34,845 bases of DNA, from assembly GCA_031279495.1 (NCBI GenBank), contig JAITIJ010000067.1, positions 1-34,845 on the forward strand, written 5' to 3'. This document shows positions 17,230 through 27,573 of this stretch, in pieces. The position numbers and the translations under genes were made by a program. The stretch comes from Holosporales bacterium. Its GTDB lineage: Bacteria; Pseudomonadota; Alphaproteobacteria; UBA3830; JAIRMZ01. The stretch's first letter is position 1. Each line of letters opens with the position of its first letter. The notes under the pieces are model-generated. The model worked only from the letters and a program-made list of their open reading frames with translations, had not been told where the DNA came from and made no database searches.

Positions 17230-17907
17230 TTGGGGGTGCTGCGTTTTATTGCTTGCATGCTTCTTAATGAGCGCATGAAATTTGGAGCGACGGAGGAAAG
17301 AAGCGTGACAAAGCACCATCTAAAGTGCATGGATAGTTCTGTTTGCAAGGGTAGGCCTTGTGCTTTCGATTCTATCAACGGTCGGCGTCGTGTTGGCGAG
17401 ATGGCTATACACGTGACTCCGCATGTTTTTCGCTTTATAGGCTCTACGCATAGCAACATTAAAGAGATAGGCTCGCGTGTTGGTCCTTGCTATAGAGAAA
17501 ATGCGCTCCTCACTTCTCGTCGTCTATTCCTTACCTCTGGCAAGCAGCTTCGTGTTGACAGGGTGACGCTCTTTGTTCGTCCTTGTTGCAAAGGGAACAT
17601 ATCTCACGTTTCCTACTCTGCACCTTTTGCGTCCAATAAGCAGCACGGTCATGAAAAAACGATCTTGCGCGATGATCATTATCGCCACAGAAGTATATTC
17701 CATATTCTTCGCCATAGGTCGTCTACATCTGACAGCCGGCGTTGTATTAGAGAAACAATCCCGCGCAAGGCCTTCTGTAGCACGCTTCTTTCTCATCTAG
17801 CGCTTGCACCTAAAAGTCAGCACCGCGATTTTAGAAAGACAGCTTCACGTGTTGGTCTTTGCAAGACGGAAGGCGTCTACTATTTTCTCTTGTGCACGAG
17901 ATGTTAA
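17230..17907 (+). other. 225-codon open frame of doubtful coding status in the rplL-rpoB spacer
   Basis: ORF track; no recognisable domain; R/H/C/S-rich composition. Confidence 0.25.
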
Positions 17908-17931: not shown

Positions 17932-20900
17932 GTGAAGTTGGCTGAGCGATCATTCACAGAGAGGAAGCGGTTTCGGAAAAGTTTCGGCAAAATAACCGAA
18001 ACCCTTGCACTTCCTGATCTTATAGAGTTGCAGCGTTCGTCTTATGAGGCTTTTTTGCAGCTCAAAGTTTTGCCTGCAGAACGCACCTCATCTGGATTGC
18101 AAGGAGTCTTTGCAGCAGCATTTCCAGTTAAGGATTTCTCAGGACATGCGCAAGTTGACTTCTGCTATTACGAATTCGATGAGACTAAATACGACGAGGA
18201 GGAATGCCGTCAGAAAGGCCTTACGTATGCAGCTCCTCTGCGCACTACTTTTCGCCTAATCGTTTGGGATGTCGACGACGATACAGGAGCAAAAACAATC
18301 CGCGACATCAAAGAACAAGCGGTCTACATGGGTGATATGCCACTTATGACACGCAGCGGAACGTTTATTGTCAATGGCATTGAACGCGTCGTCGTCTCGC
18401 AGATGCAGCGCTCCCCCGGTGTTTCTTTTGATCACGACAAAGGTAAAACACATTCCTCAGGAAAATTACTCTTTTCAGCTCATATTGTGCCGTACCGAGG
18501 CTCATGGCTCGATTTTGAGTTCGACGCCAAAGATCACCTTTATGTTCGCATAGATCGCAAGCGCAAAGTTTTGGCAACGACATTCCTCATGGCTCTTGAT
18601 AGTGCGCAAACAGAAGCACTCCGTATTGAGCGCGAAAAAGACGGTAAAGCTGTTAAATATTCTGAGGTCACAGGCATGTCACGCGAAGAGATTTTGCGTG
18701 CTTTCTATAATGTCGTGATTTACTCTAAGACAAAAAAAGGAGATTGGCAGCGCGCTTACACGCCTGCGGAATGGCAATCAGTTAAGATCTCGCGAGATTT
18801 GGTCGATGCAAGCTCTGGACAGGTTATCGCGAAAGCGGGAACAAAATTCACGAGCCGTTTGGCCCAAAAATTATACGACGAAGGGCTTCGCAAGGTTCGC
18901 ATTCTACCAGAAGAACTGGTCGGCGCGTATGTCGCTGATGATTTTATCGACGAATCCAACGGCCTTGTGCTTATTGATGCGGGAGCGGAACTGACAGAAG
19001 AGCTTCTCCATGTTTTCGAAGAAAATGGAGGGAAAGAGCTTGCAACCCTTGCAATTGATCGCCTTAACACAGGTGCGTATATACGCGATACGCTTAATAT
19101 AGATAAAAATAATTCTCGCGAAGAAGCTTTGTTCGAAATATATCGTGTACTCCGTCCGGGAGAGCCACCCACTGTTGATGGTGCGGCCGAACTCTTTCGC
19201 AGTCTTTTTTTTGATCAAGAGCGTTATGATCTGTCTGCGGTTGGACGTGTAAAGCTAAATGTTCGCCTTGAGAAAGACACGCAAGATGATTTGCGGACCC
19301 TTACAAAAGACGACGTCTTGAGGATTCTTAAAATACTGCATGAGTTAAAAGACGGGCGTGGAGAAATCGATGATATCGACAACTTGGGCAATCGTCGTGT
19401 TCGTTCAGTCGGGGAACTACTTGAAAATCAGTTCCGGATAGGGCTCTCTCGAATGGAACGTTCTATTCGAGAGCGCATGGGGTCTCCTGATGTTGGAAAC
19501 GCGATGCCTAACGATATTATCAACGCGAAACCTGTCAGCGTTGCCATCCGCGAGTTTTTTACTTCTTCGCAGTTGTCTCAATTTATGGATCAGACTAATC
19601 CATTAGCTGAGATTACTCACAAACGACGATTGTCTGCGTTAGGGTCCGGAGGACTAACTCGCGAGCGAGCTGGGTTCGAGGTGCGCGATGTGCACCCCAC
19701 GCACTACGGCCGTATTTGCCCGATTGAGACACCAGAAGGTCCTAACATCGGTTTGATCAACTCTTTGGCAACTTTCGCACGCGTTAATAAATATGGGTTC
19801 ATTGAGTCTCCGTATCGCAAAGTTGTCAATGGTCGCGTTACAGATGAGATCATATATCTTTCTGCTATGGAGGAAGCGCGACATACCATTGCGCAAGCTA
19901 ATGCTGCACAAGATGCTAAGGGCTGTTTTACTGATGAATTCGTCATTTGTCGCCAGAAGGGAGAAACGATTAATGCGCCGCGCGATGCGATCACTCTAGT
20001 CGATGTTTCTACTAAGCAAGTTGTTTCTGTTGCCGCCTCTCTCATTCCATTTCTTGAAAACGATGACACAAGCCGAGCTTTAATGGGGTCCAACATGCAG
20101 CGCCAATCTGTCTCGCTGTTGCGCACAGAGGCACCATTAGTTGGTACCGGCATGGAGAGTGTTGTTGCGCGTGATTCTGGGGTTGTTGTGGTTGCTAAAC
20201 GCGATGGTGTGGTGGACCAAGTAGATGCGCAACGCATCGTGGTCCGCACCTTTGAGGAATCGGATGACACAACTGTCGGTGTTGATATCTATAATCTGCG
20301 GAAATTCGAGCGTTCGAATCAAAGTACGTGTATTAACCAAAAGCCGCTTGTGCGTTGCGGAGATACCGTCAAGGCGGGTGACATTATTGCCGATGGTCCT
20401 TCTACACAACTTGGAGAGCTTGCTCTTGGACAAAATATGTTAGTTGCATTCATGTTGTGGAACGGCTACGGCTTTGAAGATGCGATTCTTCTCTCAGAGC
20501 GTGTTGTGCGCGATGACCTATTTACTTCTATCCACATTGAGGAATTCGAAGTCATGGCACGTGACACGAAGCTCGGCAACGAAGAGATTACACGTGATGT
20601 GCCCAATGTTGGCGATGAAGGGCTGCGTCATCTTGATGAAGCCGGGATTGTGCATGTCGGTGCCGAGGTTCAAGCTGGAGATATCCTGGTCGGCAAAGTA
20701 ACTCCCAAAGGCGAGTCACCGATGACCCCGGAAGAAAAGCTTCTTCGCGCAATTTTTGGTGAACGTGCTTCAGATGTACGCGATTCCTCGCTGCGTATCC
20801 CGCCAGGAGTCTATGGCACCGTTGTCGATGTGAAGGTCTTCACACGTCGCGGAGTTGAAAAGGACGAGCGCGCTTTAGCAGTCGAGAAAGCAGAAATCGA

Positions 20901-22203: not shown

Positions 22204-25200
22204 ATGGTAGATCGATTCCAGCGGATTTTTGGTCAAGCAGCCAATCCTGATGATTTTGATGCCATTCGGATTTCTCTCGCAAGTCCAGAGAGAATTCGCT
22301 CTTGGTCTTTCGGTGAAGTGAAAAAACCAGAAACGATTAACTACCGTACGTTCAAACCCGAACGTGACGGATTGTTTTGTGCGCGCATTTTTGGCCCGAC
22401 GAAGGACTACGAGTGCCTTTGTGGCAAATATAAACGCATGAAATATCGTGGTGTGGTATGCGAAAAATGTGGCGTTGAGGTGACGCTTTCAAAGGTTAGG
22501 CGCGAACGTATGGGGCATATCGAACTCGCTGCTCCTGTTGCCCATATTTGGTTCACGAAATCTGTACCCAGCCGAGTTGCTCTGCTGCTTGATATGCCTA
22601 TGCAAGATATGGAGCGTGTCCTGTATTTCGAGAACTTCGTCGTAACCGAGCCAGGTTTAACACCATTTAGTCTTTATCAGCTTCTGACAGAAGATGAATA
22701 CTTACGAGCGCAAGATGAATACGGTGAAGACGCTTTCAGCGCCAGCATCGGTGCAGAGGCGCTACGAACGATGCTGCTTTCTTTGGATCTTAACGAAACT
22801 GCTGCTCACCTACGCACAGAGCTGGTGGAAACTAATTCCGAAATGCGACGTCGGCGCATTGTTAAGCGCTTGAAACTCGTTGAGTCGTTTTTGCAGTCGC
22901 ATTCTCGTCCGGAATGGATGATTCTCAGCTGTATTCCTGTTATTCCACCAGAATTACGACCTCTTGTACCTCTTGATGGTGGGCGATTTGCCACGTCTGA
23001 TCTTAACGATTTGTACCGACGTGTTATTAACCGCAATAACCGTCTTAAGCGTTTGATCGAGCTCCGTGCTCCCGATATCATCGTTCGCAACGAGAAGAGA
23101 ATGTTGCAAGAATCCGTCGATGCTCTGTTCGACAATGGACGCCGCGGCAGGGTTATCACAGGAACCAATCGACGGCCACTTAAGTCTTTATCGGATATGC
23201 TCAAAGGGAAGCAAGGGCGATTCCGCCAGAACCTACTCGGAAAGCGCGTCGACTATTCCGGCCGCAGTGTCATCGTTGTAGGCCCGAAACTTAAATTACA
23301 TCAATGCGGTTTGCCGAAGCGCATGGCGTTGGAGCTTTTTAAGCCTTTTGTTTATTCGCGCTTAGAACGCTACGGACTTGCGAGCACGCTAAAAGCTGCT
23401 AAGCGTATGGTAGAAAAAGAGCATCCTGGTGTTTGGGATGTCTTAGAAGAAGTTATTCGCGAGCATCCGGTCTTATTGAACCGCGCTCCGACTCTACATA
23501 GGCTGGGCATCCAAGCTTTTGAGCCGATGCTTATCGAGGGGAAAGCCATTCAGCTCCATCCGCTGGTTTGTACTGCTTTCGGTGCTGACTTTGATGGCGA
23601 CCAAATGGCAGTTCACGTACCACTTTCGTTAGAAGCGCAGCTAGAAGCGCGCGTCCTGATGATGTCGACGAATAATATTCTTAGTCCTGCAAACGGTCGA
23701 CCGATTATTGTGCCAACCAAAGATGTTGTGTTGGGTCTCTATTACCTTACTAGCGAACGTGAGAAAGCGCTGGGAGAAGGCATGGTGTTCAGTTCCATTG
23801 GCGAAATTGAGCACGCCTTGCATGAAAGAGCCGTCAGTTTGCAAGCGCGCATCGCAGCTCGTTGCGAGGAGTATCAGCCAGATGGCTCAATTAAACGTGT
23901 GCGCGTTCAGACGACTCCTGGTCGCATGCTGTTGTCCACAATTATGCCGAAAGGGCCGCATATTCCATTCCGCGCCATCAATAGGCAACTCACCAGCAAG
24001 GACGTAATAGGGCTCGTTGGACAGGTCTATCAGCATTATGGTCAGAAAGAGACCGTTCTTTTTGCTGATCATATGGTTCAACTTAGCTTTAAGGCCGTGA
24101 CAGAGTCTGGAATCTCATTCGGCAAAGATGACCTAGTCATTCCGCAAGAAAAGCAGAAGATCATCGCTAAAACGCGCGCAAAAGTAGCCGAATATGAGCA
24201 GCAATATCTAGATGGTCTAATTACACAAGGCGAAAAATACAACAAAGTGGTTGATGCATGGACACAATGCAACGAGGCGGTGTCAGAAGTTATGATGAAG
24301 CGCATTTCTACGGTTAAGCCAGGGGAATACGAGAACGCGATCTACACGATGGCACACTCTGGAGCCCGTGGTTCAGCTACTCAAATGCGGCAAATCATCG
24401 GTATGCGTGGTTTGATGGCTAAATCCTCAGGTCAGATCGTTGAAACTCCAATTACCTCTAATTTCAAAGAGGGATTAACGGTGCTTGAATACTTCACCTC
24501 TGCCCACGGTGCTCGTAAAGGTCTTGCAGATACAGCGCTAAAAACAGCGAATTCTGGATATTTGACACGGCGCTTGGTTGATGTGGCGCTGGATTGTGTC
24601 GTTTCCATCGAAGATTGCGGAACATCGCATGGCATTACCTTGAAAGAGGTAATGGAAGACGGAGAAATCACCGTTCCTTTGTCGGTGCGGGCTTTGGGCC
24701 GTACGGTTGCAGAGGATATCGTGGACAGAACCACAGAAAAAGTGATCATCACGCGAGACACCATGATCGACGAGGCATTATTGCCAGTTCTTGAGGCTGC
24801 TGGAATCACTGAGATCAAGGTCCGATCTGCTTTAACCTGCGAAGCCAAGATTGGGGTCTGCGCTAAATGTTATGGACGTGATTTGGCCAAAAGCCGTCCG
24901 GTTAATGTCGGAGAAGCTGTTGGCGTTATTGCGGCACAGTCGATTGGTGAGCCTGGAACGCAGTTGACTCTACACACTTTCCACGTCGGAGGTGCGGCGC
25001 AAGGTAGCTCAAAACAATCCTCTACTGAAGCTTCTCTAGATGCGACTGTCTCTATTCGCAATCGGAATGTGGTAGAAGACACCTCCGGTCGCAAGATTGT
25101 AATGGGACGTCATGTGGAGGTTGTCTTGAAAGATGCCCGCGGACGTGAACGCGCGAGCTATAAACCGCCATATGGCGCCACCTTGCGCGTGGATGATGAC

Positions 25201-26340
25201 GACAAGGTGACTAAGGGGCAATGCTTAGCAGAATGGGATCCGTATACGCTACCGCTTATTGCAGAGCGCGGTGGACGTGCGCAGTTTCTAGACCTCATTG
25301 AAGGAGTTTCTTTACGCGAGGCGACAGATGAAACGACAGGTATCACCACGCGCGTTGTAATGGATTGGCGTCAGCAAGCACATACCGCAGATCTTAGACC
25401 GCGTATTGTGTTGTGTGATGAAAGCGGAGCACCGCTTACTCTCGCGAATGGTCAAGAGATCCGGTATTTCTTGGCGGCGGATGCGACACTAAATGTCAAC
25501 AATGGAGACGAGATTCATGTTGGTGATGTTCTTGCACGCATTCCACAAGAGGCTAGCAAAACACGCGATATCACAGGCGGTTTGCCACGTGTCTCTGAGC
25601 TTTTTGAGGCGCGGAAACCAAAAGATTGTGCGGTGATCAGCGAATATGATGGTCATATTGAGTTCGGCAAAGACTATAAAGGCAAGCGCCGTATTATCCT
25701 ACGGCCACATGACGAATCTTTGCCTCCGGTCGAATATCTTGCCCCCAAATGGCGCTATGTTGCGGTGCAGGAAGGCGATGTTGTGAGCAAAGGAGAAGTC
25801 TTGATTGATGGCAATCCTGTTCCGCATGATATTTTGCAAGTTCTTGGCGTAGAAGCGCTTGCAGATCACTTGGTCAACGAGATCCAAGCCGTCTATCGGC
25901 TTCAGGGTGTTAAAATCGACGACAAACACATCGAGATCATCGTATGCCAGATGCTGCAAAAAGTTGAGGTCACCGACCCAGGTGACACGATGCTGCTAAA
26001 TGGCGAAACGGTTGATCATGATGAATTCGAGGAGATGAACGAGCATATTCGTCAACGCGGTGGCAAATTGGCGAAAGCAAAACCCATCTTGCAAGGAATT
26101 ACCAAGGCGTCCTTGCAGACTAAGTCCTTCCTTTCTGCAGCTGCGTTCCAAGAAACAACGCGTGTGCTGGCCGAAGTGGCTGTTAGCAGCAAATCAGATC
26201 ATTTGGCCGGCCTCAAGGAGAACGTTATCGTTGGCCGCTTGATTCCTGTTGGAACAGGGGCTTCTATCGCGCGGTACAAGTCTATGGCTGCCCTTCGAGA
26301 CACGGAATCTCTCAGCAAAGAAAGGGCAGCTGTTGCTTAA
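22204..26340 (+). CDS. rpoC: RNA polymerase beta' subunit
   Basis: Zn finger, [21 protein letters not shown], bridge helix [14 protein letters not shown], trigger loop [11 protein letters not shown]. Confidence 0.99.
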
Positions 26341-26903
26341 GAAGAGGCAGCAGTCGAGAGAATGAGAAAAAATGGAAAGAAGTGCGCAAAGGGTGTGTGG
26401 TGGAATTCTCAATGACCCGTTCTTTGGTCGGTTTTTTTACTTGGGAAGCGTGAGCACATCTGAGGTGCAATCTGAAACATAACTTCGGTTAGACGAGAAG
26501 AACTTTCGTAATAATATCAAGACTATTTGGAATCGCGTTGCAGACCCTGTTTCAGAGCACGCAATGTCATCTAGTCGGCTAACAAAATTCCTGAGAATGA
26601 AAGCGGATTGCTATTTAATTGTACATTTAGCAAACAATGGGTAGGAGCATCGCACACATTAAAGGGAATGAGTCTCCTTTTTTTTCACTGCAACTCTCTT
26701 GCCTCATTTGACATGCGGTCTAGCGTTATTTCCTTTTAGATGAGGCGCGAAAGATGTCTCATAAGACTTGGCTATGACAAGTTAGAGTCTACAGTTTTTC
26801 TAGTTTCTGCACGAGCTTTTAAAGAAAAGACGAAATACGGAAAGCTCGTTTCTGTATAGAGAATGGGGCCTCTGTGAAGGCAATGGCCCATTGTTTAGAA
26901 GGT

Positions 26904-27113
26904 TTATAGAGCTGCTTGAACCTGGCGCGTCAGCTCGACCAATTCTGGATCTTGGATGCCATGCTCGATCACAACCTTTGCTGCGGTTTGACGTGTTTCA
27001 GGATCTGGATTCTCTAATTGTTCTCGCAAAACATCCGTCGGTGGATGCATCGCTTCTGCATAAAAAGTTGCCAGTGCGGCGATTGATGTTAGTAGTTTAC
27101 AAGTGTTGTTCAT
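26904..27113 (-). CDS. Small exported protein with one HEAT-like repeat
   Basis: MNNTCKLLTSIAALATFYAEA signal peptide (AEA cleavage motif); LREQLENPDPETRQTAA HEAT-like motif; GGAG SD and consensus promoter upstream. Confidence 0.7.
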   Translation of the reverse strand: MNNTCKLLTSIAALATFYAEAMHPPTDVLREQLENPDPETRQTAAKVVIEHGIQDPELVELTRQVQAAL

Positions 27114-27143
27114 TTTCACTCTCCATTTTTTGAACATGAGGGA

Positions 27144-27174
27144 AGTATATCACGTCCCCCCCCCTATTTGTCAA
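27144..27174 (-). promoter_or_regulatory. sigma70 promoter with poly-G9 in the spacer
   Basis: Minus strand TTGACA-aata-GGGGGGGGG-acgTGa-TATACT (19-nt spacer, extended -10 TGn). Confidence 0.75.
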
Positions 27175-27445
27175 GTTTCTGGAGAAGGTTTTTGCAATCT
27201 TATTGCCTCTTCTTGAAGTTGTTGCACAACCGACCTGCTGCACAGAAACAAGTAAGGCAAGAAAAGAAGGGAGGGGGTGAGCTTTGATTTTGTTTTGCTT
27301 GCAACGTAATTGAACGAATGGGAAGAGCATACGAGTCTTTCTGAATGGAATAGAGAATCTTCTTACTCCGTCCATTCACCTCTCACAACAAGTCCAATCT
27401 CATACAAATCCCCACTCCCCAGTATACCCAGTTCTCTTGCAGGAA

Positions 27446-27474
27446 TTGACACCAAGGAGATCACTCGATACAAC
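27446..27474 (+). promoter_or_regulatory. sigma70-type promoter of tRNA-Ser
   Basis: TTGACA-N17-TACAAC ending 8 nt before the tRNA. Confidence 0.65.
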
Positions 27475-27482
27475 CGACGCCA

Positions 27483-27573
27483 GGATGGGTGGCCGAGCGG
27501 TCGAAGGCGCACGCCTGGAAAGTGTGTATGCGGTTCTCCCGCATCGTGGGTTCGAATCCCACCCCATCCGCCA
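27483..27573 (+). tRNA. tRNA-Ser, anticodon GGA
   Basis: GGATGGG/CCCATCC acceptor stem, CACGC-CT-GGA-AA-GTGTG anticodon arm, long variable arm, TTCGAAT, G73, CCA. Confidence 0.97.

Follow-up and report, generated by a model that had tools for sequence, protein, structure and literature searches.

Family-wide trigger-loop and bridge-helix-cap substitutions in the RNA polymerase of Holosporales-labelled alphaproteobacteria

In textbook accounts of RNA polymerase (RNAP) the trigger-loop residues that contact the nucleoside triphosphate (NTP) and the asparagine of the NADFDGD catalytic loop are near-invariant, and what is known of how the two loops cooperate comes almost wholly from mutants engineered in E. 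coli, Thermus and yeast. The trigger-helix side chains reaching the NTP are M932, R933 and H936 (PMC4227799). Loss of the arginine is costly, by about 4-fold for R933A in E. coli and about 50-fold for R1239A in Thermus (cited in PMC3325174), and R933 substitutions strongly affect RNA cleavage (bioRxiv 10.1101/2024.06.20.599782). We consider here the rpoC gene, encoding the β' subunit, in a 34,845-nucleotide stretch of DNA from a Holosporales bacterium (contig JAITIJ010000067.1 of assembly GCA_031279495.1, positions 1 to 34,845; hereafter the window), in which M932 and R933 are both replaced alongside changes in the F-loop, the bridge helix and the catalytic loop.

Three described systems come closest. 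In E. coli the CBR703-resistant and pause-resistant 'closed active site' mutants P750L and F773V (Malinen et al. 2014, PMC3959191), at the interface of the bridge helix and β, stabilise the folded state of the trigger loop, give translocation a backward bias and resist pausing, the stabilising and pause-resistant effects being reported also in bioRxiv 10.1101/2024.06.20.599782. The window is altered at the same F-loop position, but with Ser in place of Leu, naturally fixed across a whole family and combined with A741I, E753Q, T776A, β A676T and an altered trigger loop, and with F773 unchanged. In the trigger loop of eukaryotic RNAP II (Pol II) the yeast residues Leu1081-Asn1082 are the counterparts of M932 and R933, and N479 (equivalent to N458), Q1078 (equivalent to Q929) and N1082 depend on one another functionally (Kaplan et al. 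2012, PMC3325174). The Pol II-type pattern of Leu at 932 with a polar non-basic residue at 933 is seen as Leu-His in the window and as Leu-Gln in a relative (G003), neither having the Asn of Pol II, and the remainder of the protein is alphaproteobacterial; the likeness is a convergence in two residues, with no homology of origin. Deinococcus radiodurans provides a precedent for retuning, since a phylum-specific trigger-loop substitution there alters RNA cleavage with a contact to R933 involved (Esyunina et al. 2016, PMC4756841), although in that case the variable residue (G1136M) belongs to the loop's other arm and R933 is conserved.

The window's rpoC is an intact frame of 1378 codons within the usual rplA-rplJ-rpoB-rpoC block (Table 1). 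Residues 8-1374 of its product match a solved alphaproteobacterial-type β' chain (E=0, 2027 bits), the precomputed Pfam domains are PF04997, PF00623, PF04983, PF05000 and PF04998, and with 66-83% identity to relatives of the order it is plainly an alphaproteobacterial β', its nearest public proteins coming from metagenome-assembled genomes (MAGs) labelled 'Holosporales bacterium'. The catalytic Asp triad DFDGD is kept (GADFDGDQM at residues 460-468 of the window protein), as are R425, R731, Q929, T931 and H936 in β', the catalytic and NTP-contact residues R678, E813, D814, K1065, K1073, R1106 and H1237 in β, and both D675 and R678 on either side of β A676T. Numbering follows the E. coli RpoC of an annotated RefSeq record, to which the window protein and those of 29 relatives within the order were aligned. 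The original prediction, made from the window's sequence alone, had named M932L, R933H, S503T/Q504K, P750S, T776A and Q805L as changed, and on codon reading all are found where it placed them; alignment bears out the retention of H936 and R731 that it also described.

Table 1. Positions in the window of the two RNAP subunit genes, of β' active-centre elements and of the codons discussed (E. coli residue numbers)
Feature	Codon(s) or extent	Window position	Strand	Remark
rpoB (β subunit)	1418 aa	17932..22188	+	
β A676T		20068..20070	+	f1-wide; DDANR 'link region' of bridge-helix cap
rpoC (β' subunit)	1378 codons	22204..26340	+	
N458G	GGT	23581..23583	+	Gly for Asn of NADFDGD catalytic loop
S503T/Q504K	ACC AAA	23716..23721	+	PTKD
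F-loop	736-765	24382..24471	+	
A741I		24397..24399	+	F-loop; f1-wide
P750S	TCC	24424..24426	+	F-loop; AKPDG to AKSSG
E753Q		24433..24435	+	F-loop; f1-wide
I755V		24439..24441	+	F-loop; window-only
Bridge helix	769-805	24481..24591	+	
T776A	GCC	24502..24504	+	bridge helix
Q805L	CTG	24589..24591	+	bridge helix; window-only
Trigger loop, N-terminal arm	913-942	24913..25002	+	
M932L + R933H	CTA CAC	24970..24975	+	trigger loop; CTA 24970-24972, CAC 24973-24975
Trigger loop, C-terminal arm	1131-1150	25561..25620	+	no f1-stem change

A comparison with E. coli alone overstates the remodelling, and about half of the changes first listed are ordinary states of the lineage. Lys504 is present in 29/29 order relatives, with Thr or Ser at 503, and among 144 diverse representatives (one per 50% cluster, aligned) Thr503 occurs in 42 and Lys504 in 18, so that S503T/Q504K is an order-wide state and no remodelling of this particular rpoC. 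Leu932 is found in 55 of the same 144 and, within the order, in family f3 as well, much as had been anticipated for M932L taken alone. Position 805 is variable (Gln in 107 and His in 24 of the 144), and Leu805 was not found outside the window among the 29 relatives and 144 representatives.

What is left is family-specific. Ile741, Ser750, Gln753, Ala776, Leu932 and His or Gln at 933 are present in all five distinct RpoC sequences of family f1, which represent four lineages: the window (genome G000), P0003 (G003, also L002), P0004, P0005 and P0006 (G002, also L003). At these six positions the ancestral residue stands in at least 90% of 38 rows from outside f1, and β Thr676 is shared by all three f1 genomes that have rpoB, namely the window, G002 and G003. 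Members of the family are Holosporales-labelled alphaproteobacteria whose genomes, of about 1 Mb, carry a nucleotide transporter. Each of these β' changes is a single-base step; codons 932-933 read ATG CGT in relatives, so that each amino-acid change there takes one base. RpoC identity within f1 is 77-83%, and synonymous codons differ among three of its species (the window, G003 and G002), with TCC/TCT/TCG at 750, GCC/GCG at 776 and CAC/CAT at 933, the last position being His in the window and in G002/P0006 and Gln in G003/P0003. These f1 changes are genuine and family-wide, they antedate the species splits, and they persist unchanged despite synonymous turnover. Since the synonymous codons have turned over and the residues have not, the data point to purifying selection holding the derived residues over a long divergence. 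Further f1 members were sought among short and partial proteins and none were found, the best match being 65% identical; in the 120 such proteins listed the trigger-loop motif is Met-Arg in 111/111 that are readable there, and the catalytic motif has Asn in 103/104 (Lys in one).

The family-specific changes are also concentrated within the enzyme. Counting as stem-type those changes at which all members of a family differ from the ≥90% consensus of the remainder, six of 15 in f1 fall inside seven active-centre elements, against 2/26 in f3, 0/11 in f2 and 1/7 in f4; the contrast with the sister families together (3/44) gives a Fisher p of 0.0058, or 0.0023 for the F-loop, bridge helix and trigger loop alone. 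The boundaries used for the trigger-loop arms, F-loop and bridge helix are our own assumed, approximate ones. The active-centre remodelling originally proposed therefore stands for an f1 subset that is concentrated in the trigger loop, the F-loop and the N-terminus of the bridge helix, and falls away for S503T/Q504K and for M932L on its own. It had been allowed at the outset that the density of substitutions might simply equal that of a genome-wide acceleration. The f1 lineage is not globally accelerated: its RpoC stem length is 0.22 as compared to 0.28 for f3, its stem-type changes in RpoB number 16 (23 in f3, 25 in f2), and the window's terminal branch carries six changes at otherwise invariant columns where several relatives carry 13-14. 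With the f1 stem not long, acceleration does not account for the cluster, the support for clustering as such being moderate. A variability-weighted null (p of about 1e-6) was rejected as biased, because the stem-change criterion preselects conserved columns.

Across other bacteria the individual states differ greatly in how rare they are. Position 458 is Asn in 144/144 representatives, position 750 is Pro in 113, Thr in 11, Ser in nine and Ala in eight, and position 776 is Thr in 105, Ser in 19 and Ala in 16. At 933, where 141 representatives have a residue, Arg is found in 131, Asn in five, Lys in three, Thr and Ala in one each and His in none. A pattern scan for other residues at 933 (His, Gln, Asn, Lys, Asp, Glu or Tyr), with one genome per prokaryotic species, returned at least 120 stretches, of which the 80 read (L032-L111) have Lys in 44, Asn in 26, Gln in ten and His in none. 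Loss of Arg933 is thus recurrent in nature, and among these 80 it is met in Saccharibacteria and other members of the candidate phyla radiation (Berkelbacteria included), Brocadiaceae, Bdellovibrionales, Dehalococcoidia, MAGs of Rickettsiales and Midichloriaceae, and haloarchaea. Such lineages resemble the window in replacing Arg933 and keeping H936, Q929 and the catalytic loop, and often in pairing the change with Leu932 (42 of the 80 read); they differ from it in having Lys, Asn or Gln and not His, in keeping Asn458 at 63/63 loci with a readable catalytic loop, and in keeping Pro750 in 38/72. Many of the 80 genomes belong to reduced-genome symbionts or episymbionts (Saccharibacteria, Rickettsiales, Midichloriaceae), and in the Saccharibacteria among them Leu932 accompanies Ala750. 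The view that His at 933 is unusual is well borne out, as it was found in f1 only, with none among the 141 representatives or the 80 stretches read. No description of a natural His933, or of the f1 family, was found in the available text of the matches listed in a search of the trigger-loop and R933 literature, and a search on natural trigger-loop variation in endosymbionts gave nothing relevant among the matches listed. The f1 cluster is a new natural variant within known trigger-loop variation and no new kind of system.

The reading that best accommodates these observations, to which we assign a probability of about 0.55, is that a coordinated set of changes became fixed in the common ancestor of f1, all within a single mechanical module of its sole RNAP. 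The module would comprise the trigger loop, with M932L and R933H (later Gln in one branch), and the bridge-helix cap, with A741I, P750S and E753Q in the F-loop, T776A at the bridge-helix N-terminus and A676T in β, the last lying in the 'link region' that is described as a component of the cap (PMC4029172). F-loop, bridge-helix N-terminus and link region together make up the cap, which packs around the trigger loop. His or Gln at 933 would weaken the contact that Arg933 makes with the NTP, as in eukaryotic Pol II, and the cap substitutions, that at Pro750 above all, would alter the balance between folded and unfolded trigger loop in such a way that catalysis stays efficient, all three cap components having changed together with the weakening of the Arg933 contact in the f1 ancestor. 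The outcome would be a working, undamaged enzyme, probably with altered kinetics of elongation, pausing and RNA cleavage. If so, f1 would offer a natural, selected combination of Leu-His or Leu-Gln with Ser750, Ala776, Ile741 and β Thr676, joined in some members by Gly458. Its members make up a stepwise epistasis series (Asn458/Gln933, Asn458/His933 and Gly458/His933), with which trade-offs between trigger-loop folding, cap packing and ribose recognition could be tested.

A number of points weigh against a coordinated module. Its states occur singly elsewhere, with Ser750 in nine, Ala776 in 16, Leu932 in 55 and a residue other than Arg933 in ten of the 144 representatives. Non-Pro750 accompanies 7/10 of the non-Arg933 rows and 24/131 of the Arg933 rows, a raw association between 933 and 750 that is uncontrolled for relatedness, and Pro750 is, as noted, often kept in the other lineages that have lost Arg933. 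Phylogenetically independent pairs, comparing 933 with 750, 776 and 932, are not significant (median p of 0.5-1, with only 5-6 supported pairs on a 259-row FastTree), this test being underpowered and neither supporting nor excluding a general covariation. The clustering test is post hoc, with approximate element boundaries, and under the strictest uniform null (716 eligible conserved columns, 138 of them in the elements) p is 0.052. The family amounts to five sequences from four lineages, and P750S differs from the P750L of the E. coli mutant. The strictest null and the independent-pairs result also speak for uncoupled drift, in which nearly neutral or slightly harmful changes became fixed in a small host-dependent population and their proximity is coincidental. 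Such drift is further favoured by the occurrence in other bacteria of all residue states except His933 and Leu805, by a widespread loss of Arg933, in many cases among reduced-genome symbionts, by the genome of about 1 Mb with its TLC nucleotide transporter, and by the failure to find DksA in four of five f1 genomes, which fits a relaxed transcription regulation. However the f1 stem does not exceed those of its sisters in length, yet places 40% of its changes in the elements against their 7%; of the six derived states five do not vary within f1 although the proteins diverge by 17-23%, and the codons read in three species show synonymous turnover; and the parts that changed form one coupled module in the literature (PMC3959191, PMC4029172). 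Uncoupled drift seems to us rather unlikely on this evidence, if still an account to be taken seriously. That the changes come from faulty assembly or binning, or from a decaying rpoC, is scarcely credible. The source is indeed a MAG in 95 contigs (0.96 Mb, 90% complete), and in the termite-gut metagenome run X1, where the window sequence is present, a second contig over 24036-25100 is 93% identical to it (76 differences in 1065 bases); the X1 sample also harbours a close relative, be it a strain or a species. But the 1378-codon frame is open and is the assembly's sole rpoC (one match in a search of its own genome), every catalytic residue except N458 is kept, and the same residue states recur in four other assemblies (NCBI, JGI). 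Logan contigs of X1 are letter-identical to the window over 23400-24065 and 24803-25100, codon 458 and codons 932/933 included, an identity that is no independent support given that X1 is possibly the source sample. Two further runs of that study, X2 and X3, gave short conserved pieces only and are uninformative on the window organism.

The original prediction had itself offered two explanations, compensation for N458G and adaptation to an inhibitor of the secondary channel, and neither fares well. If the trigger-loop, F-loop and bridge-helix changes arose as compensation for N458G one could point to the presence of both features in the window, to the yeast genetics that links N479 with N1082, and to Gly458 within f1 being seen in this sample with His933 only and never with Gln933. 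The full cluster nonetheless stands alongside Asn458 in G002/P0006 (with His933) and G003/P0003 (with Gln933), and Gly458 is present in the window and in P0004/P0005, N458G being a two-base change from the AAT or AAC of f1 relatives. In the RpoC tree P0004/P0005 pair with the Asn458-bearing G002 (99%), and a concatenated RpoB and RpoC tree gives (G002,(G000,G003)) with 98% support, which places N458G on two tips; it was gained twice, or gained once and reverted twice, on a background already carrying the cluster. Because Gly458 sits on two separate tips and the cluster is in all of f1, the cluster is the older of the two, and therefore is no compensation for N458G. Gly458 outside f1 tells a similar story: a metagenome scan returned at least 120 contigs with it, the 80 read (L152-L231) group at 80% identity into 29 clusters that span very different lineages, and the 49 of these with an in-frame trigger loop have Arg933 in 47 (Leu-Gln at 932-933 in two), Pro750 in 49 and Thr776 in 48. 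Taken with the retention of Asn458 in lineages that have lost Arg933, this leaves no general covariation of 458, 932 and 933 such as had been looked for, and makes compensation very improbable. Only a little less improbable is that the f1 changes confer resistance to a natural inhibitor of the bridge-helix cap or secondary channel, for example a lasso peptide or a molecule that resembles salinamide or the CBR compounds. P750 is a CBR703-resistance position (PMC3959191), the cap is the salinamide target (PMC4029172), microcin J25 (MccJ25) and capistruin contact the F-loop, the bridge helix and the unfolded trigger loop (PMC6347699), and β A676T is flanked by the contact residues D675 and N677. 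Against this, of the salinamide-resistance sites described in β' and at β 569, 675 and 677 (PMC4029172), 11/11 in β' are unchanged in the window from E. coli wild type (690, 697, 738, 748, 758, 763, 775, 779, 780, 782 and 783) and β I569 and D675 are kept, the Ser at β 677 being shared with 29/33 relatives' rows (Thr in three, Gly in one) and so not specific to f1. The residues contacting Tyr9 of MccJ25 (R744, M747, S775, G778, A779 and β D675) are likewise kept, as is T931, at which T931I gives MccJ25 resistance (PMC6347699). F773 and H777 are unchanged, and P750 has become Ser where the reported CBR703-resistance allele is Leu; among the sites compared P750 alone coincides with a resistance site. 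CBR703 is moreover a synthetic compound, which counts against selection of this kind.

With the cluster read as a coordinated module that predates N458G, it is possible to ask what allowed the loss of Asn458. The f1 background is possibly permissive for it, because two Gly458 gains are seen in four sampled f1 lineages against none in an even sample of 400 other genomes of the class searched for the Gly458 DNA pattern, and such permissiveness fits the interdependence of N479, Q1078 and N1082 in yeast. N458S changes sugar selectivity only modestly, the main determinant being R425 (PMC7862312). A more specific proposal, which we hold to be tentative and on balance unlikely, is that the cap and trigger-loop module was the permissive, perhaps required, background for losing Asn458 twice, with His933, Q929 and R425 partly taking over the positioning of the NTP ribose and phosphates. 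Were it true, the f1 enzymes would be a natural and in part Pol II-like alternative way of recognising the substrate, and would differ in sugar discrimination, pausing and proofreading. One unrelated metagenome lineage (L200/L221) combines Gly458 with Leu932-Gln933 and keeps Pro750 and Thr776. The motif GADFDGD was not found in the literature searched.

Factors that act through the secondary channel are mostly in place. GreA is found in 5/5 f1 genomes and in 35/36 genomes from other families of the order, and a RelA/SpoT domain in 5/5 and 34/36. A DksA-type zinc finger (PF01258) is found in 35/36 of the other families' genomes and in f1 in G003 only (1/5), the four f1 genomes without it being 90, 59, 92 and 63% complete. 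DksA was likely lost in parts of f1, to judge from these gene contents, and as that loss lies off the f1 stem it does not explain the cluster. The window's own genome encodes a full-length ATP/ADP-type nucleotide transporter of the TLC family (G000:C85:1410-2858, L310; 615 bits), which marks the organism as dependent on host nucleotides, and such a dependence may bear on relaxed constraints on NTP selection.

Some changes are private to the window. At columns otherwise invariant in the 29 order relatives and E. coli, β' carries L4F, Y631A, I755V, R1258C and G1339S, and β carries P535S and A689S at columns invariant in 33 relatives' rows and E. coli. The β' change G628S is f1-wide, and the segment with Y631A and G628S is one that we take to lie near guanosine tetraphosphate (ppGpp) site 1 of E. 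coli. Immediately 5' of rpoB there is a 225-codon frame without a Pfam match (17230-17907), and the 1.1 kb or so 3' of rpoC (26341-27480) has no frame longer than 92 codons and is followed by a tRNA-Ser gene at 27483-27573.

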